The translations under genes and the position numbers were made by a program. Positions 7,004 to 20,265 of a stretch of DNA of 64,000 nucleotides are shown piece after piece; position 1 is the stretch's first letter; every line of letters begins with the position of its first letter. The stretch lies in the NCBI RefSeq assembly GCF_056746865.1, contig NZ_CM163382.1. The stretch is one strand, 5' to 3'. The notes under the pieces were generated by a model. The model searched no databases, was not told where the DNA came from, and saw only the letters and a list, made by a program, of their open reading frames with translations.

Positions 7004-7684
7004 TCACAGGTTAAAGGTGTTGATAAGTTTATGGATGAAAGAGAAATGTGGCAGGGCGGAGATAAAACGCTCTTCAGCGACCAGACTGTGGATGTGGCCT
7101 CTCCGTTCAAACCGTTCTGATGTCAGGCTGACTGATTTGATATCTGCCAGAGGAAAGACCTGCAGTTTTCCCTTCTGTAACGCGATCAGATACCAGCTAC
7201 CGCTGTAATAAATGAGCCGGCAGGGCTCCAGTGACGGATACCATCGCTCAGTCATCAGAGAGATGTGGATACACTGTCTTATTGCCAGGATGAGTTGCGA
7301 GAAACACTCGGGGAACGTTGCAGTGATATCCGGCGCCGGTAGCCAGATAAGGCAGGGAGAGGGCTCCTGGTTGTCGGTAAGACAGGTTATCAGTCGTCCG
7401 TTCCGGAGCGGAAGTATCCGTGCGATCCCGGTATTCTGTATAAAAGAAAGCATTTCAGGGATCGCACCTGGGCTGCTCTGTCGTCTGAGACTGTACCGGC
7501 CATTTCTGTACTCTAAGTCCAGGTGAACCAGACGCTGATGAAAATCGCGCTGTAAAGTACGTTCTGTAACGCCAAATTCATCTGACAGTGTTTTTAGTGA
7601 CAGAGATTCTCCGGCCATCAGTCGGCTGATAATGAGTGATAAGCGAACCGCCAGGCGATCATGCCGGGAACGATTATCAGACAT
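7004..7684 (-). CDS. HTH/WYL-domain transcriptional regulator (YfjR-like)
   Basis: 226-aa ORF with N-terminal HTH (LSLKTLSDEFGVTERTLQRDF) and C-terminal WYL-like region (YYSGSWYLIA). Confidence 0.6.
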   Translation of the reverse strand: MSDNRSRHDRLAVRLSLIISRLMAGESLSLKTLSDEFGVTERTLQRDFHQRLVHLDLEYRNGRYSLRRQSSPGAIPEMLSFIQNTGIARILPLRNGRLITCLTDNQEPSPCLIWLPAPDITATFPECFSQLILAIRQCIHISLMTERWYPSLEPCRLIYYSGSWYLIALQKGKLQVFPLADIKSVSLTSERFERRGHIHSLVAEERFISALPHFSFIHKLINTFNL

Positions 7685-7886: not shown

Positions 7887-8771
7887 TCAGAACAGACGAT
7901 CCCACAGTGTGACCAGCAAGTGGATAATGCGGTCCCGGGCCTTACGCAGAAGCTGTAACATCCAGGCCGGAAAGCTGAATTGGGCAACGGCAGCGTCAAA
8001 GCTTTTCCCGATGGCGTCACCAAAAGTTTGTTGTGCGTGTTTCCGGGCCTGTTCAGAGCGGTTTTCCCCCCGGATATGTGAATAAACTGCGCTGGTTGCC
8101 TGTGGTGGCAGTGCGTGGATCATCAGCGACACCAGTGCCGGAAGATTCCAGCCGACAGGTGCGGCAACGGAGAGTACCGGAAATGATGACGGGAACAGGG
8201 TTGCCACCCGGGCTGTTACTGTCGCCAGTGAGAGTTCCTGCTGACGGGACGGGCATTTTTCTGTGTCGTTCCATTCTTCAGCAGGAAACACGCGATCGGC
8301 ATGGCTGAGAACAAACAGAAAACGCGAGGGATCTGCACCTTCATTCAGTAAAAACTGATGCATGGCAATATCAGCAGCATACGCACGTTCATCAGCCCGC
8401 AGGATCCAGATAATCAGATCCAGTTCCGGCAGTAACTGACGGTAAAGCTCCCGGTATTCCTGATCATGCTGCGGTGTCTCACCAATGCCGGGCATATCGA
8501 CCAGCGTCATTCTGCGTTCACCGAGCTGCAGGGTAAGACGATGAGCCTGGCGGGTGCAGCCGTTCAGGGGATGCGTGGCGCAGATACGGGACTGAAAAAT
8601 GGCATTACACAGACTGCTTTTGCCGGTGCCGGATTTACCCATAATGCCAATTACGGGCTCGTAATGAATAACACCGTGGAGATGTTCAAGGATTTTCTGG
8701 CGAATTTCTTCAGGAAGAAACGTCAGATATGATTTTACTTGTGCAGAGAGGGAAGAATGGCTGAATGACAT
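7887..8771 (-). CDS. YfjP/YeeP-family GTPase
   Basis: P-loop GIMGKSGTGKSS and G3-like motif DMPGIGE in a 294-aa ORF. Confidence 0.75.
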   Translation of the reverse strand: MSFSHSSLSAQVKSYLTFLPEEIRQKILEHLHGVIHYEPVIGIMGKSGTGKSSLCNAIFQSRICATHPLNGCTRQAHRLTLQLGERRMTLVDMPGIGETPQHDQEYRELYRQLLPELDLIIWILRADERAYAADIAMHQFLLNEGADPSRFLFVLSHADRVFPAEEWNDTEKCPSRQQELSLATVTARVATLFPSSFPVLSVAAPVGWNLPALVSLMIHALPPQATSAVYSHIRGENRSEQARKHAQQTFGDAIGKSFDAAVAQFSFPAWMLQLLRKARDRIIHLLVTLWDRLF

Positions 8772-8955
8772 ACCGGTATCCTGTTGATTTCGCTGAACCG
8801 GATCACACTAATCCGGTTTATCATTCAGGTAATATGGACGTGAAAAATGATGGAATGTCTGAATTACGGACATGATTGTTAAAGTGTAATGGAGTATGAA
8901 GTGAGTTTTTCCGAACGGGAACTAATGACATACTGCGGTTTCAGGAGATGAGAGG

Positions 8956-10086
8956 ATGACCGGACGTAAAAACAAATGTGTCAGAAAAAATTGTAACAAT
9001 CAGGTTTTCTCAGTAAAAATGGCAGTGGAGAAAAGACTGTGCAGAAAACATTATGAGAGGTTTTGTGAGCTCAAAAAAAGAAGAGAGCAAAATCCTGTTC
9101 ACAGATTAAATGAAGCATTGCCAAGAAAGATAAAAGGACCAAAAAGTAAGAAAAAATTAGTAAAAGAAAGAGAAATCATTAACAGCAGAAAAAAACATAA
9201 ACAGGAGCAGGGACCATCGCTGACTGAACTTAATAAAAAAGTTCGTGAGATACTGAAAACTCCTGCATGGAGAACGCTGGAAACGAGAATTCGAAGAAAC
9301 GGAATCACATTTAAGTCAAAAGCAGAGTTAGATGCGCTTTCTGAACTTTATGCAATTTATTCATGGGTTTCATATTGCAAACGGGGCGATAATTATTCTG
9401 TGTGGTTTTTGAATTGTCCGGATGTAAATATAAACCTTCATGTGTGCGAATGCCGGTCTTCTGAAAGCGATTGTTATCTGCCATCTCGTTTTATTATTCT
9501 TCCAGCTCCATTAAGGCAAAAAGTAAAAAGAAAATACTCGGCTAATTCGTCTGGGGTACCAGGACATAATGATTCAAAAAGTCTTTATAAGACAGTTTTG
9601 TCTGTTTGTGGTGGGAAAAGAGAAACCGAATTGTTCTTTTATTCACTGCCAGTAAAGACTAATCATCATCCTTACTGGATTAAAAGTGGTGTGGTTAAAA
9701 GATTTCCTCCTGTTTTTGGTTTGTTGTTTTATGAACAGGAAAGATTAACAGGAGGTGTTTTTCGTTATGTGTTGATAAGGTTTTATAATACTTTTAAGGA
9801 GAATTTGTTTTTTGTTGAGATTGTCTCGTGCTGTTTTCTTGTTGAGCTTTTTCATGATATTGATTCGTTTTTTATAAATCAACGATTAAGTAAGCTGGAA
9901 AGTTTTATAGATAAGTGGAGGGAGGGTAAAGAAATCTGGATAAAAGCATATCTACAACTGATACATAATACATTGGGAATAACTGAAACAGAAAAACTCG
10001 TCAATCTATATAATTCATTTTTTACTGATAAAGTGGTTATCTGGGATGAATCAGTAAAAAAAGTTAAGTGGATTTATGAGAAATAG
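8956..10086 (+). CDS. Hypothetical protein, 376 aa, Cys/Lys-rich N-terminus, no recognisable family; visibly AT-rich foreign gene
   Basis: Long stop-free ORF in AT-rich DNA (unlikely by chance), RBS aggag upstream of ATG; N-terminal C-x6-C...C-x2-H-x4-C and a lysine-rich tract; aromatic-rich C-terminal half. Confidence 0.55.
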   Translation: MTGRKNKCVRKNCNNQVFSVKMAVEKRLCRKHYERFCELKKRREQNPVHRLNEALPRKIKGPKSKKKLVKEREIINSRKKHKQEQGPSLTELNKKVREILKTPAWRTLETRIRRNGITFKSKAELDALSELYAIYSWVSYCKRGDNYSVWFLNCPDVNINLHVCECRSSESDCYLPSRFIILPAPLRQKVKRKYSANSSGVPGHNDSKSLYKTVLSVCGGKRETELFFYSLPVKTNHHPYWIKSGVVKRFPPVFGLLFYEQERLTGGVFRYVLIRFYNTFKENLFFVEIVSCCFLVELFHDIDSFFINQRLSKLESFIDKWREGKEIWIKAYLQLIHNTLGITETEKLVNLYNSFFTDKVVIWDESVKKVKWIYEK

Positions 10087-10619
10087 TACCATTTAACTGA
10101 AAGCCACCATAACGTCTTTTTGACTACATCCATGATAATGAGTCTCATTTTGATTTCGTTTTTTTTGTTTCGGGAAATTTTCCGAACATCAGTGATAATG
10201 AGGGTTTTGTTGTTTTTGTTTCTGCAATGTTTGAGGGCTGTTCCTGGAGATGATTCGTTGCTTGTGAGCAAGAGGTGGTCCGCTTTACTGGACAAGTTTT
10301 GCATTTGTTGAGTGGTGAAATGGAAGTAAAAAGAGCCCCTTTCTGGCAATGACTGAAAAAGTCAGTAGCGTGTGACAGTAAAAACTAACATAAAGTGATT
10401 ATCGTATGATTATGACAATGACTTATAACTTTTATGAAAAGAACAACAGAAACTATGAAACCATAGCAGATTCCTGAGACCATGTTTTCTGAGGTAGAGA
10501 AAATAATTCAAGAGTAAACCAGTTTGTTTTTTGGTCAGTAAAGAACCATGCCTGATGTGAAAACGGGTAATCAACATTCAGTCTGCATGAATGTCTGAGA
10601 ATGTTGCTAATGTCGGTAT

Positions 10620-10760
10620 GATACTATATACACGTATTTTACTAAGTATTTTTACTAAGCATTTCAGTAAGTGTTTTACCAGACATACACGTGTTTTCAT
10701 AAACAGCCCTATAAGTGTTTTCATTAAGCATTGCTGTACACATTGCTTTGTCTGAAACAC
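10620..10760. repeat. Iteron-like short direct repeats (ACACGTATTTT / AGTAAGTGTTTT / ACACGTGTTTTC / ATAAGTGTTTTC) in AT-rich noncoding DNA
   Basis: At least four closely spaced copies of a TGTTTT/TATTTT-cored motif read directly in the sequence. Confidence 0.4.
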
Positions 10761-11601
10761 ATCCAGTTTAGTAAATCTTTACGTTAGCTAAAATCAGTTT
10801 AAAGCTGCTGTAAAACCTTTCTGTTTAAGCAATCAATCTGCTATTCGATTTTACTGATGTTGCGTTTAACCTTTTCTGAGTTTTTGTGTTTTTAGTCGTT
10901 AACCTGAGACAAGTGTCTTTACGTAAAAACGCAAATCCGACTGAGATAACCTGGTGTGATTTACGGTGTGCTTGCGACGATTTTGTTAAATGGTTCTATG
11001 GATGATTTTGTGACGATGAGATTGATGAGATGATTAACTGGCCCTGGTGTTTTTTCTCAGTGCAAGGTGATTATCTTCATCATAAGGCTCTTTTCAGAAA
11101 AAGCGTGATGATTGGTTCTGGTGTTTTGATTCAGATGAGATTTACGTTATCGATGGTTAATCGTTTTTATGGTGTGTTGAAAAGTAACGTTTTCACGATA
11201 AGAAAATCGATTCTGATATTGGTGAACTTTGTTCTTGTGGCAGGGTTATCTGTAAACAGGTTTTAAGTGCGCTATTCGGCTCTGTGATTGAGTTGTGTGG
11301 TTAAGCTGTAGGTTTTGGTGTTGTTGTTGATTTACAGCGCCAGAAAGCGTTCTGATTGCGTTTTTGATGTTTTGTTTGCACGTTCTGTTGATCCGTTTCC
11401 CTTCAGGCTTTGTAGTTTTTAAAAACCATTTATGCCGTTGTTGTGTGTTTTATCCTGCGTGTAGGTTTATCTTTTCTTCGTGGGGGATTCATTCTGTTTT
11501 AATCAGGAGCCATTGGCGTTGCTCAATGGCGGGATGCCGTAAAGTTTTACCGCAGTGATTAATGATGTGAAGTCAATCCAAATCAACGGAGATCTCTCAT
11601 C

Positions 11602-12333
11602 ATGAATCAACCAATACACAATGCTTACTGGTTATCCCGTTTTGAAAGTATTCTCAACAGTGCCCTGGCGCAACACCGTGCCGTCTCGTTAATCCGGGTG
11701 GATTTACGTTTCCCTGAGTATATGCCTGCCACCATCATGGATACCGATTTAGATTCAGCGGTGATTTCTCGTTTTTTTGCATCCCTGAAAGCAAAAATTC
11801 AGGCTTACCAGCGACATAAACGACGTGCCAACAAGCGTGTGCGTGCAACCACTCTGCGTTATTTCTGGTGTCGGGAGTTTGGCAAGGAAAAAGGCAGGAA
11901 ACATTATCACGTGATATTACTGCTCAACAAAGATACCTGGTGCTCGCCAGGGGATTTCACCGTTCCTTCTTCGCTGGCGACACTGATCAAGCTGGCATGG
12001 TGTAGTGCTCTGCATCTTGAGCCCTGGCAGGGTAATGGACTGGTTCATTTTTCCAGGCGGACGCCTTTCCGTAAACCGACATCATCTGATGCTCGCCCTT
12101 CTTCCGATGATACGCCTTTGTCGGGTGGATGTTCTGATACCAGGAAGGCTTCAGACAAAAAGCCGGGTGAAGCCGCTGTTCTCTGGATCAAGCGTGGTGA
12201 TGTGGAAGCGCTGCAGAAAGCCCGGAACAGAGCCAGTTATCTCGTGAAATATGAGACGAAGCAGCATGACGGTTCCGGGCAACGTAATTATGGTTGCAGT
12301 CGTGGGCCGGGGCGTCTGCTGGATGGCAGGTGA
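11602..12333 (+). CDS. Inovirus Gp2-like protein (YagK/YfjJ family) of CP4-type elements
   Basis: N-terminus MNQPIHNAYWLSRFESILNSALAQHRAVSLIRVDLRFPE recognised from memory of the YagK family; RBS ggag 12 nt upstream. Confidence 0.55.
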   Translation: MNQPIHNAYWLSRFESILNSALAQHRAVSLIRVDLRFPEYMPATIMDTDLDSAVISRFFASLKAKIQAYQRHKRRANKRVRATTLRYFWCREFGKEKGRKHYHVILLLNKDTWCSPGDFTVPSSLATLIKLAWCSALHLEPWQGNGLVHFSRRTPFRKPTSSDARPSSDDTPLSGGCSDTRKASDKKPGEAAVLWIKRGDVEALQKARNRASYLVKYETKQHDGSGQRNYGCSRGPGRLLDGR

Positions 12334-16506: not shown

Positions 16507-17329
16507 AGGGAGATGAAAAAGGCAATAGCAGAACTGAGTGACAGTGAAACCATTCTGGCGTACAGGGTTGGATGGTGAAACTGATAAAAAAACCCTCTGA
16601 AAATTCTGTCAGAGGGTGTAGTCAAAAATGGTAGATATTTACGATGCAGTAATGCTTTCACTCCGGTAATTAATTTCCGTGATTAACTGCTTTCGATCAA
16701 TAAAGGAATTGCAAAAGTGTGATCTTGTTCACGACATCGTGGATGATAATATGCCTGATGTCTGAATCCGGAAACAGTGCTCTGGCGGGTTTCATGTGAA
16801 GTTGACGGATAAAAAATCCGCACGACCAGACAGACGTGCGGTTTACGAAATTCGTAACAAGAGGCTTTTCTACGGATCACGTGGTGCGTGCCACGTGAAA
16901 TTTTTGTAGCGCAAAATGTGCAATGTGTAAATACAAGGAAGGAAAAAAGTTAAATTGGTAGAAGTCCATGCCTGCCACATGTACGTCTGCATTCCTCGTT
17001 TTGAACAGAATTCTCACCAGACATCGTGAATTTCTCATTCAATCATCAGAGATATTAACCAGGATTTTTATTGTTTTGTGATATCAGCAGTGCAGGTATA
17101 CAGACGTTAAAGTAATCAGGTTTATTATAACCACCTTTACAAAGTTGTATATGTTTATAATTTAATGATTTTAATGCCAGTCGTTTTCTGCTGCTTAAAT
17201 TGAGGTCGCATATTATACACAATAATATTCTTAGCATTATTAAATTAATAAGAGAGGATTCTTATCACTGTATTTTTGCTCCGCACTACCGTTCTGGCTG
17301 GTGAAGTAATAATACAGGAGAATAACAGA

Positions 17330-18871
17330 ATGCTTAAAAGACGTGATGCTTTTTTAAAGAAAAGCGCGCTGGCAGTGAGTGTGGCCCTGCTGCTCTCGGC
17401 TCAGGCTCAGGCTGTTTTGACAGGGCCTGTTGATGGTAATTCTTCCAGCTTACTGATTGGAGAAAACTCTTTTATTACGAATTTAACTGGTACAGTTAAT
17501 AACACTTTCCTTTTGGGAGGTGGCGCTTTTAACCTGGATTCACCAGGAAGTCTTCAGTTTGGCTCTTTTTCGGAAGTGTATAATTCTCCACACAGTGTCA
17601 CCCTGGGAAGGGATGCCGGTCAGGCTGAGTCAAAATATGGTGTTGCCATAGGTAAGAGCGCTGAGGTATTTAATTCACAGCATAGTGTTGCTATTGGGGG
17701 ATGGGCTGGAATAGAAAATTCTTCAGGCTCTGTAGCTCTGGGCCATGGCTCACAGGTGTCGGGAGAAAATAACGTGGTATCTGTTGGTGCCGGGCCTGAG
17801 GGATATGGAAAGAGTGTCAAAGGAGCACCGGAAACCCGCCGGATTATAAATGTGTCTGATGGTATCAATAACACAGATGCAGCGACGGTAGGGCAACTGA
17901 ATGAACGATTTGATGATGCACAGGTCTTTTTGTTGCAGACGAATGAAAGAATTGACGAGACAGATAAACGTCTTTCAACAGTTCATGCTGAACTCAGCAG
18001 GGATATTATTGCAGGCACATCGGCAGCGGTGACGTATACAGATGTAACAGCGCTTGCACTTCAGGATGAGATAAAGGATGGGACGAACAAAGTACGTGAT
18101 GAGTTGAAATCACAGGGAGACAGTCTGCGTGGTGAGATAGGCGGTGTATACAGAGATGCCCGTGCTCATACTGACAGTCAGGTCACAGCAGTACGTGATG
18201 AACTGAAGGCAGAGGGAGACAGTCTGCGCGGTGAGATAGGCGGTGTATACAGAGATGCCCGTGCTCATACTGACAGTCAGGTCACAGCAGTACGTGATGA
18301 ACTCAGCAGGGATATTATTGCAGGCACATCGGCAGCGGTGGCGTATACGGATGCATCTTCTCTTGCTCTTCAGGATGAAATAAAAGAAAAAGCGGATGAA
18401 ACAGTTCAGGTTTCCCGGGCTTATACAGATAAAAGTGTACGGGATGCCCGTAAAGAAGCGAAAAGCCAGGCAGAACATCTCAGCGATGTGCTTGTGAAGA
18501 ACAGGGCGCAGACGGATGCAGCAATAGCCTCAAATACAGCAGCGATAAGGAATAACAGTCATCGTCTGGATTTGACGGAAGCCTGGCAGAAGATGGCGAC
18601 AGAGAGAATGAATAATATGCAGGAGCAGATTAAAGAGAACCGGAAGGAGTTAAGGGAGAGTGCAGCCCAGAGCGCGGCACTGGCCGGTCTTTTCCAGCCA
18701 TACAGTGTTGGAAAATTTAACGCGACAGCAGCCGTTGGTGGTTACCGTGATGAGCAGGCCATTGCGGTGGGCGTGGGCTACCGTTTCACAGAGAATGTGG
18801 CAGGAAAAGTTGCAGTTGCTGCAGGTGGGTCATCCGCATCGTGGAATGCTGGTGTGAATTTTGAGTTCTGA
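17330..18871 (+). CDS. Trimeric autotransporter adhesin, YadA-like (possibly Eib/Saa-like), 513 aa
   Basis: Signal peptide ([28 protein letters not shown]), head repeats (GVAIG, SVAIGG, SVALGH), neck motif [11 protein letters not shown], coiled-coil stalk with repeats, C-terminal anchor ending NAGVNFEF. Confidence 0.8.
18092..18289 (+). repeat. Two near-identical 99-bp tandem repeats within the adhesin stalk (33-aa units), plus a third partial unit
   Basis: Units start at 18092 and 18191 and differ at only a few positions; a further roughly 45-bp direct repeat at 17984-18036 and 18296-18348. Confidence 0.85.
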
Positions 18872-18892: not shown

Positions 18893-20265
18893 GTCCCGGG
18901 GGGAGTCCCCATAAGCGCTAACTTAAGGGTTGTGGTATTACGCCTGATATGATTTAACGTGCCGATGAATTACTCTCACGATAACTGGTCAGCAATTCTG
19001 GCCCATATTGGTAAGCCCGAAGAACTGGATACTTCGGCACGTAATGCCGGGGCTCTAACCCGCCGCCGCGAAATTCGTGATGCTGCAACTCTGCTACGTC
19101 TGGGGCTGGCTTACGGCCCCGGGGGGATGTCATTACGTGAAGTCACTGCATGGGCTCAGCTCCATGACGTTGCAACATTATCTGACGTGGCTCTCCTGAA
19201 GCGGCTGCGGAATGCCGCCGACTGGTTTGGCATACTTGCCGCACAAACACTTGCTGTACGCGCCGCAGTTACGGGTTGTACAAGCGGAAAGAGATTGCGT
19301 CTTGTCGATGGAACAGCAATCAGTGCGCCCGGGGGCGGCAGCGCTGAATGGCGACTACATATGGGATATGATCCTCATACCTGTCAGTTCACTGATTTTG
19401 AGCTAACCGACAGCAGAGACGCTGAACGGCTGGACCGATTTGCGCAAACGGCAGACGAGATACGCATTGCTGACCGGGGATTCGGTTCGCGTCCCGAATG
19501 TATCCGCTCACTTGCTTTTGGAGAAGCTGATTATATCGTCCGGGTTCACTGGCGAGGATTGCGCTGGTTAACTGCAGAAGGAATGCGCTTTGACATGATG
19601 GGTTTTCTGCGCGGGCTGGATTGCGGTAAGAACGGTGAAACCACTGTAATGATAGGCAATTCAGGTAATAAAAAAGCCGGAGCTCCTTTTCCGGCACGTC
19701 TCATTGCCGTATCACTTCCTCCCGAAAAAGCATTAATCAGTAAAACCCGACTGCTCAGCGAGAATCGTCGAAAAGGACGAGTAGTTCAGGCGGAAACGCT
19801 GGAAGCAGCGGGCCATGTGCTATTGCTAACATCATTACCGGAAGATGAATATTCAGCAGAGCAAGTGGCTGATTGTTACCGTCTGCGATGGCAAATTGAA
19901 CTGGCTTTTAAGCGGCTCAAAAGTTTGCTGCACCTGGATGCTTTGCGTGCAAAGGAACCTGAACTCGCGAAAGCGTGGATATTTGCTAATCTACTCGCCG
20001 CATTTTTAATTGACGACATAATCCAGCCATCGCTGGATTTCCCCCCCAGAAGTGCCGGATCCGAAAAGAAGAACTAACTCGTTGTGGAGAATAACAAAAA
20101 TGGTCATCTGGAGCTTACAGGTGGCCATTCGTGGGACAGTATCCCTGACAGCCTACAAAACGCAATTGAAGAACGCGAGGCATCGTCTTAACGAGGCACC
20201 GAGGCGTCGCATTCTTCAGATGGTTCAACCCTTAAGTTAGCGCTTATGGGGGAGTCCCCCGGGAT
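18893..20265 (+). mobile_element. IS4-family insertion sequence with about 38-bp terminal inverted repeats
   Basis: IRL cccggggggagtccccataagcgctaacttaagggttg (18893-) and IRR caacccttaagttagcgcttatgggggagtcccccggg (-20265); transposase ORF 18959-20077 has the IS4 YREK signature (Y-RL-R-WQI-E-LAFKRL-K). Confidence 0.7.
18959..20077 (+). CDS. IS4-family DDE transposase
   Basis: 372-aa ORF, YREK motif, bounded by the element IRs. Confidence 0.7.
   Translation: MPMNYSHDNWSAILAHIGKPEELDTSARNAGALTRRREIRDAATLLRLGLAYGPGGMSLREVTAWAQLHDVATLSDVALLKRLRNAADWFGILAAQTLAVRAAVTGCTSGKRLRLVDGTAISAPGGGSAEWRLHMGYDPHTCQFTDFELTDSRDAERLDRFAQTADEIRIADRGFGSRPECIRSLAFGEADYIVRVHWRGLRWLTAEGMRFDMMGFLRGLDCGKNGETTVMIGNSGNKKAGAPFPARLIAVSLPPEKALISKTRLLSENRRKGRVVQAETLEAAGHVLLLTSLPEDEYSAEQVADCYRLRWQIELAFKRLKSLLHLDALRAKEPELAKAWIFANLLAAFLIDDIIQPSLDFPPRSAGSEKKN

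Follow-up and report, generated by a model that had tools for sequence, protein, structure and literature searches.

A probable HNH-derived zinc-finger protein with a degenerate catalytic site, encoded at a fixed allelic position of chromosomal islands in Enterobacterales

The open reading frame (ORF) studied here, at positions 8956-10086 on the plus strand of a 64,000-nucleotide stretch of contig NZ_CM163382.1 (NCBI RefSeq assembly GCF_056746865.1; hereafter the window), encodes a 376-residue protein that very probably descends from zinc-finger HNH nucleases and has lost the HNH catalytic site. It lies in an integrative island, between a divergently transcribed YfjP-like GTPase gene and a Gp2-like gene, and, as judged from alignments of related islands, the slot that it fills is a fixed position subject to allelic exchange, not free cargo. 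Rather than as something categorically new, the protein is best regarded as an HNH-superfamily variant whose catalytic site has degenerated, whose C-terminal domain is novel and whose population structure is unusual. The reading that we favour overall, at a probability of roughly 55%, is that of an HNH-derived, non-catalytic DNA-binding protein that carries a diversifying partner-recognition domain and takes part in island regulation or conflict.

A first-pass annotation of the window, made from its letters alone, had presented the ORF as long and well initiated, and this description holds. The 376 codons begin at an ATG with a good ribosome-binding site (AGGAG at 8942-8946, 9 nt upstream), the other two frames across the ORF contain 25 and 41 stops, and the probability of 376 open codons arising by chance is 4e-15 at the local GC content of 0.34 (stop probability of 0.084 per codon). 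This 376-aa type is present in 462 of 5,426 complete Escherichia coli genomes, being intact in hundreds of them, and the protein cluster of its product holds 3,400 member sequences. Relative to an 80%-identical haplotype (L006), the ORF shows zero indels and a ratio of nonsynonymous to synonymous divergence (dN/dS) of 0.31 at a dS of 0.34, unlike the non-coding DNA just 3' of it, which displays many indels. Divergence between both haplotypes is unevenly distributed, with a dS of 0.56 in the C-terminal half versus 0.16 in the N-terminal half, and with protein identities of 100% in the zinc finger and 71% in the C-terminal domain. Klebsiella, Atlantibacter and other genera contain homologs of similar length (376-414 aa), the most distant of which are 30% identical. 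Considering (i) the small probability of a chance origin, (ii) the low dN/dS together with the lack of indels, (iii) the homologs reaching down to 30% identity and (iv) the size of the protein cluster, the substitution and conservation patterns indicate that the ORF is a functional gene kept by purifying selection. It did not turn out to be a housekeeping or insertion sequence (IS)-derived gene, or one absent from or disrupted in most related islands, in the sense in which the first-pass annotation had intended these outcomes.

It appears highly improbable that the ORF is what is left of an HNH gene that has lost its function, is decaying and lies silenced in AT-rich DNA. The loss of the catalytic site would fit with it, as would the AT-rich composition, DNA of this kind being typically silenced by H-NS, and another allele of the family, of 407 aa, is frameshifted in at least one genome. 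Nonetheless, the purifying selection without indels, the retention of full length across genera down to 30% identity, the confident fold predicted from a diverse alignment and the presence of intact copies in hundreds of genomes all speak against decay.

Direct searches with the 376-aa protein gave nothing significant in Pfam, NCBIfam, PADLOC, PHROGs or PDB sequences, and the protein on its own shows no significant match to any HNH profile. Its label in the NCBI Prokaryotic Genome Annotation Pipeline (PGAP) is 'hypothetical protein' (WP_000147745.1), and literature on accession numbers, on the island backbone and on inactive HNH domains contained nothing specific to this gene, so that its earlier qualification as uncharacterised was correct. 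The family is without a name and without a Pfam, NCBIfam or PHROG model, and no paper covering the 376-aa protein was found. While the single-sequence route to remote homologs thus failed, the profile route succeeded. When 1.84 billion representative proteins were searched exhaustively with a profile, only 37 clusters emerged, nearly all of 370-430 aa, which form a small family exclusive to Enterobacterales and to integrative islands, and 30 diverse members of it were gathered in an alignment (A2).

Eleven distant members of the family share the motif LE(V/L)(C/S)H-x-(Y/F)-P-N-(S/G)-x-GG-x-N-x3-N-x-(I/L)-I-(A/G)-P-x2-(I/L)-N-(R/Q/K), whose H, P, GG, N, N, P and N are invariant and reproduce the HNH pattern H..P...GG.N...N......N. 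These distant members match HNH endonuclease families of PHROGs (phrog_8660, 8.8e-7; phrog_1271, 2e-6, 1.5e-4 and 2.5e-4), as well as endonuclease VII in the same collection (7e-3), HNH_4 (7.4e-4) and HNH_5 (2.4e-3) in Pfam and, weakly, the HNH region of Cas9d. When a profile of the motif region was compared with the PDB, six out of six sequences retrieved were HNH nucleases (McrA 6ghc, Cas8f-HNH and 'HNH nuclease domain' proteins), each of them a weak match (E about 1) and all in register on the catalytic His, GG and Asn residues; a PDB sequence search with the full family profile gave no match. Since the PHROG, Cas9d, Pfam and PDB matches agree independently, the motif of the distant members is identified as HNH. 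The clade that contains the window protein aligns in turn with the HNH-motif clade along its full length (hhalign probability of 99.85%, E 7.8e-31, 353 columns), and its homology to proteins of the HNH superfamily is therefore established through that clade. The first-pass annotation had regarded the protein as unrecognisable and as matching no family that it could recognise, a view that this profile-profile comparison overturns.

In the register provided by hhalign, none of the catalytic residues of the motif is retained in the 376-aa protein. E165 occupies the position of the catalytic His, S171-D172 replace GG, Y174 replaces N164, and R178 and R187 replace N168 and N177 (P0029 numbering for the three Asn residues), so that neither the catalytic His nor the structural or metal-ligand Asn residues are found, while P183 is kept. 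The catalytic-His position is His in 11 of 11 motif-bearing members versus E, T, K, S, W, F or Q across 19 of 19 degenerate ones, and the substituted motif positions are not conserved within the degenerate clades. In E. coli and Klebsiella members every HNH catalytic residue is lost. Consequently to such replacements, the 376-aa protein would no longer be expected to cut DNA.

Within the degenerate motif, a cluster formed by H162, C164, C166 and C173 (residues 162-173, positions 9439-9474) is kept in the 80%-identical haplotype and is not kept in relatives at 38% (P0004) or 30% (Klebsiella) identity; it could represent a lineage-specific new metal site. It is nevertheless very unlikely that the protein is a still-active nuclease or another enzyme using alternative residues, either H162/C164/C166/C173 or R263/E288/N353. 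Purifying selection on the ORF, the occurrence of invariant polar residues outside the HNH site and the appearance of this His/Cys cluster inside the degenerate motif of 376-aa alleles would be compatible with such an enzyme, but the cluster is already missing at 38% identity and structural searches revealed no known catalytic fold for the C-terminal domain.

Five segments are distinguished along the protein. Residues 1-46 (8956-9093) make up a CCCH zinc finger, the most conserved domain, with ligands C8, C13, C29 and H32, to which C37 is added in the clade of the window protein. The four ligands are nearly invariant family-wide (C8 in 26/26, C13 in 25/26, C29 in 26/26 and H32 in 27/27 members), and the spacing C8-x4-C13-x15-C29-x2-H32 is fixed among members having the domain. 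A Cys/His cluster had been pointed out in the first reading of the sequence; its existence and conservation are confirmed, although the C-x6-C spacing assigned to it is to be corrected to C8-x4-C13...C29-x2-H32-x4-C37. This region keeps 46-59% identity where full-length identity is about 30%, and in distant members its equivalent matches the Zn-finger part of the phrog_1271 'HNH endonuclease'. One member of the family, P0026 (465 aa), shows a tandem duplication of this N-terminal module, reminiscent of the way in which zinc fingers are repeated in HNH endonucleases of phages (phrog_1271). Residues 47-98 (9094-9249) constitute the Lys-rich tract that had been noted earlier, here a Lys/Arg-rich linker with 17 K+R and an isoelectric point (pI) of 10.6, which stands where the HNH-motif clade has a second zinc cluster (CxxC...YCSxxC/H). 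Residues 99-155 (9250-9420) are a conserved helical segment containing KTPAWR, with W105 present in 29/29 members, and ELYxxYSW. They are followed by the putative degenerate beta-beta-alpha (HNH) element at residues 156-196 (9421-9543), located by the hhalign register and containing the invariant P183. Finally, residues 197-376 (9544-10083) form a family-specific domain that is modelled as all-helical with a terminal beta-hairpin and belongs to the fastest-evolving parts of the protein, yet P252, L256, R263, E288, Y352 and N353 are invariant or nearly invariant in it, and complete with C8, C13, C29, H32, W105 and P183 the set of positions conserved family-wide. The C-terminal half of the protein is as rich in aromatic residues as had been stated (31 F/W/Y in 176 residues). 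In general, the zinc finger and residues 99-155 are conserved across the family, and divergence is much greater in the three remaining segments.

The structure of the protein was also modelled with AlphaFold2 (AF2). The model obtained from the deeper, diverse alignment reached a predicted local distance difference test score (pLDDT) of 84.3 and a predicted template modelling score of 0.71, while a shallow-alignment model was unusable (pLDDT of 49.9). Values were 96-97 in the zinc finger, ranged from 83 to 97 in residues 99-155, and dropped to 50-73 in the linker, where a low-confidence helix is placed at residues 65-85. Strands 161-165 and 179-183 and helix 184-194 appear where the HNH motif aligns. 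Structural searches with this model returned generic helical bundles only from the PDB and family members only from AFDB50, the C-terminal domain showing no known catalytic fold and no specific PDB fold match.

Among the closest known systems are the phage-type zinc-finger HNH endonucleases (PHROG 1271 and 8660; Pfam HNH_4 and HNH_5), in which, as predicted for the window protein, one or more N-terminal C-x4-C...LC-x2-HY zinc modules are followed by a beta-beta-alpha element. The window protein departs from them in lacking the catalytic His, the GG and the three Asn, in having a Lys-rich linker in place of the second zinc cluster, and in bearing a C-terminal helical domain of about 180 residues that has no counterpart in them; in addition, phage genomes yielded no member of the family (0 of 50,697 records matched in a tblastn search with the HNH-intact member P0030). 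In McrA (6ghc) and Cas8f-HNH (8ydb), the catalytic core is in register with the LEVxH-x-x-P-x-S-x-GG-x-x-x-x-N of the distant clade. However, similarity to McrA and the solved HNH nucleases is confined to a motif-level match (E about 1) without overall similarity, and the window protein itself is without the motif residues.

To the left of the gene lies, on the minus strand at 7887-8771, the gene of a YfjP-like TRAFAC-class GTPase (NCBIfam Era/EngA-type GTPase domains; 'GTPase family protein' in PGAP), and to its right, on the plus strand at 11602-12333, the Gp2-like gene ('inovirus Gp2 family protein' in PGAP; YagK/YfjJ, REP_ORF2-G2P-related), an ortholog of which gives matches to Pfam YagK_YfjJ_C and REP_ORF2-G2P. 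Both are conserved flanks. The AT-rich block described between them in the first-pass annotation is real, with GC contents of 0.351 at 8850-10500 and 0.373 at 10501-11601 versus 0.515 in both flanks. Alignments of seven islands revealed sharp breakpoints at about 8850 and about 10500. At the former, identity to the islands of strain 536 and of the extraintestinal pathogenic E. coli (ExPEC) XM falls from 0.84-1.00 to 0.3-0.5; this collapse, together with the recovery at about 10500, delimits an allelic cassette of about 1.65 kb (8850-10500) in which promoter and ribosome-binding site, ORF and a non-coding tail of about 0.4 kb are swapped as a unit. The slot proteins of 536, ExPEC XM and L015 are 19-22% identical to that of the window, while the Gp2-like proteins are 87-95% identical and the GTPases 95%; among islands with different slot alleles GTPase identity is in general 94-95%, and 87% in L014. 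The left breakpoint falls within the divergent intergenic region (8772-8955), of which the left ~80 bp (to ~8850) are common to all islands, and the right ~105 bp, including the ribosome-binding site of the ORF, are allele-specific. An inverted repeat (8761-8776 / 8813-8828; 16 nt, 88% complementary, 36-nt spacer) spans the GTPase start codon in the common part, and is a possible candidate operator.

Three alleles of one family, about 20% identical and of 376, 407 and 316 aa, were found in E. coli. The 407-aa protein, present in strains 536 and ATCC 8739, is distantly homologous over its full length; it shares 22% identity with the Klebsiella member across about 410 residues and has the zinc finger and the YNS(F/C)F C-terminal motif of the family. 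The 316-aa allele (ExPEC XM, L015, L016) is without the zinc finger and accompanied by one extra unrelated gene. The latter is convergent, encodes 262-284 aa (L009, 4671-5459; L015, 3311-4165, minus strand), has been seen in all cases with this allele, and neither matches PADLOC nor resembles the slot family; in this form the cassette may comprise two genes. Across the complete E. coli genomes, the 376-aa type occupies 515 places, the 407-aa type 1,069 places (976 genomes) and the 316-aa type 812 places (741 genomes). These 2,396 places compare with 2,606 places of the non-coding block shared downstream, so that about 90% of the modules are filled. Since three versions of the same gene are exchanged at a fixed spot, this is not random cargo. 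The proposal of a variable cargo slot survives for K-12, where the interval of CP4-57, a more distant island, contains unrelated defence genes, but not for the type of island in the window; apart from the extra gene next to the 316-aa allele, the GTPase-to-Gp2 interval does vary in content, but as alleles of one family and not as unrelated cargo.

These data bear directly on the proposal that the gene is novel single-gene anti-phage defence cargo, its slot being a defence hotspot and its alleles defence specificities, which we consider unlikely. In its favour, the yfjJ-to-yfjP interval of K-12 CP4-57 indeed carries, as had been claimed for the equivalent position, known defence genes (abpB, abpA, yfjM, rnlA and rnlB, with AbpAB and RnlAB), defence loci typically show such extreme diversity of alleles inside conserved surroundings, one HNH-intact relative adjoins GmrSD, AAA_15/21 and Dcm cargo, and nearby genes encode a WYL regulator and a GTPase that partially matches LeoBC/LeoA. 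On the contrary, none of the 376-, 407- and 316-aa alleles matched any family of PADLOC-DB 2.0, the alternatives at the slot are homologs of one family instead of unrelated systems, the nuclease effector site is destroyed, and the positional ortholog in Klebsiella suits a backbone gene better. The defence function put forward in the first-pass annotation is thus without supporting evidence. The comparison with K-12 is itself limited, because, although AbpAB, YfjM and RnlAB also lie between a YfjJ/Gp2-like gene and a YfjP-like GTPase of a related P4-integrase island, they are unrelated proteins, experimentally known as defence or toxin-antitoxin systems and arranged in co-directional order, whereas in the type of island seen here the interval contains a conserved non-coding block and a single gene, whose three alleles are homologous. 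K-12 YfjH (318 aa, divergent from alpA) was considered as a family member and discarded (hhalign probability of 0.1%).

The same position is kept beyond E. coli. In Klebsiella, a 30%-identical ortholog lies at it, next to a GTPase 50% identical and a Gp2-like protein 20% identical to those of the window, and an ortholog in the same arrangement occurs in L021 (P0033). Members of E. coli and Klebsiella thus sit between the divergent GTPase operon and AlpA/Gp2-like genes. HNH-intact members are encoded in integrase-bearing islands directly 3' of a small gene, which Pfam assigns to the AlpA family in three of the six contexts and which is an unannotated ORF in the remaining ones, and are followed by DUF3987, DUF932 or a GTPase. 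A tblastn search with the 376-aa protein found a match in a single plasmid record out of 72,556, which, together with the phage search above, suggests that the family is confined to chromosomal islands of Enterobacterales.

This distribution also weighs on a further possibility, that of an anti-defence or establishment factor of a leading-region-like block, which would shield incoming island DNA or decoy host nucleases and diversify through an arms race. Proximity to an operon with DUF932, an antirestriction protein (KlcA-like) and RadC/JAB suggests it, as do the dead nuclease fold with its basic N-terminus and the rapid diversification. We judge it quite unlikely, as the gene is divergent from the DUF932/antirestriction/RadC operon in E. 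coli, is nearly absent from conjugative plasmids, a common site of such factors, and shows no similarity to known anti-restriction proteins.

The 1.5 kb downstream of the ORF had been described as AT-rich DNA without convincing ORFs. No credible gene was indeed found, but the stretch is not uniform, consisting of an allele-specific 3' tail (10087-10500), with 74-89% identity and indels relative to L006 and not alignable to islands with other alleles, and of a conserved AT-rich non-coding block of about 1.1 kb upstream of the Gp2-like gene (10501-11601), independent of the slot allele. The latter, carried by 1,879 E. coli genomes, has mostly 85-95% mean identity across the seven islands (70-96% per 50-nt bin), its substitutions having no codon periodicity, versus 32/23/51 in the Gp2 gene used as control. 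From ~10800 to 11600 it is strand-asymmetric, with a GC skew of +0.24 to +0.37 and an AT skew of -0.23 to -0.33. At 10628-10740 it bears an iteron-like array of degenerate ~24-nt units (ATACACGTrTTTTacTAAGyrTTT) whose copy number differs between islands, and just 5' of the array lies, with a conserved -10-like GGTATGATACTATATACAC, the region's single promoter-like site on the plus strand (10595-10622). Scans of the downstream region for sigma-70 promoters and intrinsic terminators showed no enrichment and no terminator, and an Rfam scan matched no family. The block could serve the Gp2-like, rolling-circle-type initiator as origin or operator, or else be a long leader or non-coding RNA.

Several candidate genes in this DNA were considered and rejected. 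An antisense ORF of 91 aa (10074-10349) does not stay open in L006, the sister haplotype. The 82-aa low-complexity 'hypothetical protein' annotated by PGAP (WP_000573215 and relatives; ~11375-11585, minus strand, equivalent to 5852-6100 of L014) is probably spurious, since it presents three in-frame stops in the window and a variable annotated length (57 or 59 aa elsewhere). Nor has the gap arisen by decay of a gene: when YfjI, AlpA, YfjJ, YfjH, YfjM, DUF3987, ParM, Gp2-like proteins and the extra genes found with other alleles were compared with it by local tblastn, only one weak match resulted, to the N-terminus of a Klebsiella Gp2-like protein (13/38 identities across a stop), which a close homolog did not reproduce.

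Regarding other neighbours, a WYL-type helix-turn-helix (HTH) regulator (PADLOC WYL, 2.6e-18) is encoded beside the GTPase gene at 7004-7684 on the minus strand, and residues 183-285 of the GTPase match LeoBC/LeoA dynamin-like defence candidates (PADLOC, 3.2e-8). Further right, the island contains a YadA-like trimeric autotransporter adhesin gene (17276-18871) and an IS4-family transposase (18959-20077).

As to function, nucleic-acid binding by the 376-aa protein is plausible because of its conserved zinc cluster and its basic charge (pI of 9.8, and above 10.3 for residues 1-98). Under the favoured reading, zinc finger, basic linker and dead HNH fold would together contact the nucleic acid, while the fast-diverging C-terminal domain would recognise a variable partner. 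The protein would then be neither an enzyme nor drop-in defence cargo, and might act as a specificity-determining regulator or conflict factor at the island junction formed by the divergent GTPase-to-CbtA operon, AlpA and the Gp2-like genes, for example by controlling that operon or by interfering with a competing element. This specific assignment as island regulator or conflict factor is tentative, its chances being somewhat short of even.

Four points weigh against this interpretation. DNA binding, zinc binding and nuclease inactivity of the 376-aa protein are all predictions made from its sequence. The invariant polar residues of the C-terminal domain (R263, E288 and N353) could form an unrecognised active site, and the term non-catalytic is for this reason limited to the HNH site. 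The family membership of the 316-aa allele is weaker (E of ~1e-3 to 1e-4). Finally, a specific partnership with the GTPase is unsupported, given that the latter shows no co-variation with the slot allele and that no GTPase gene adjoins one half of the distant members.

A parallel may be drawn with the Stl-type master repressors of phage-inducible chromosomal islands, which are divergent from the island operon and combine a conserved DNA-binding end with a variable partner-recognition end. Similarly, the gene in the window encodes a highly divergent, putative DNA-binding protein divergently from an island operon, and its alleles differ between otherwise similar islands. The analogy has its limits, as Stl proteins use HTH domains whereas the window protein has a zinc finger and a dead HNH fold, and as the gene is co-directional with its neighbours in the HNH-intact clade. 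Following this parallel, it is conceivable, though rather unlikely, that the three alleles are specificity variants of a sensor-regulator sitting on the promoter of the GTPase operon or on the iteron-like array, to be released or activated when the hypervariable C-terminal domain binds a protein of an invader or competitor.

For the family, HNH descent with catalytic loss provides the first testable handle, together with the tie to the AlpA/GTPase junction and with the hypervariable cassette between near-identical flanks, a population signature of conflict or specificity loci. The gene is also withdrawn from the list of free cargo. The 1.1 kb conserved block and its iteron-like array may in turn be regarded as a candidate island origin or control region. 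For E. coli, the module is present in about 35% of complete genomes (1,879 of 5,426), and nearly all copies encode one of the three alleles. If the sensor-regulator proposal were true, approximately one third of E. coli genomes would thus harbour a new non-HTH, Stl-like master switch, or a defence or anti-defence sensor.

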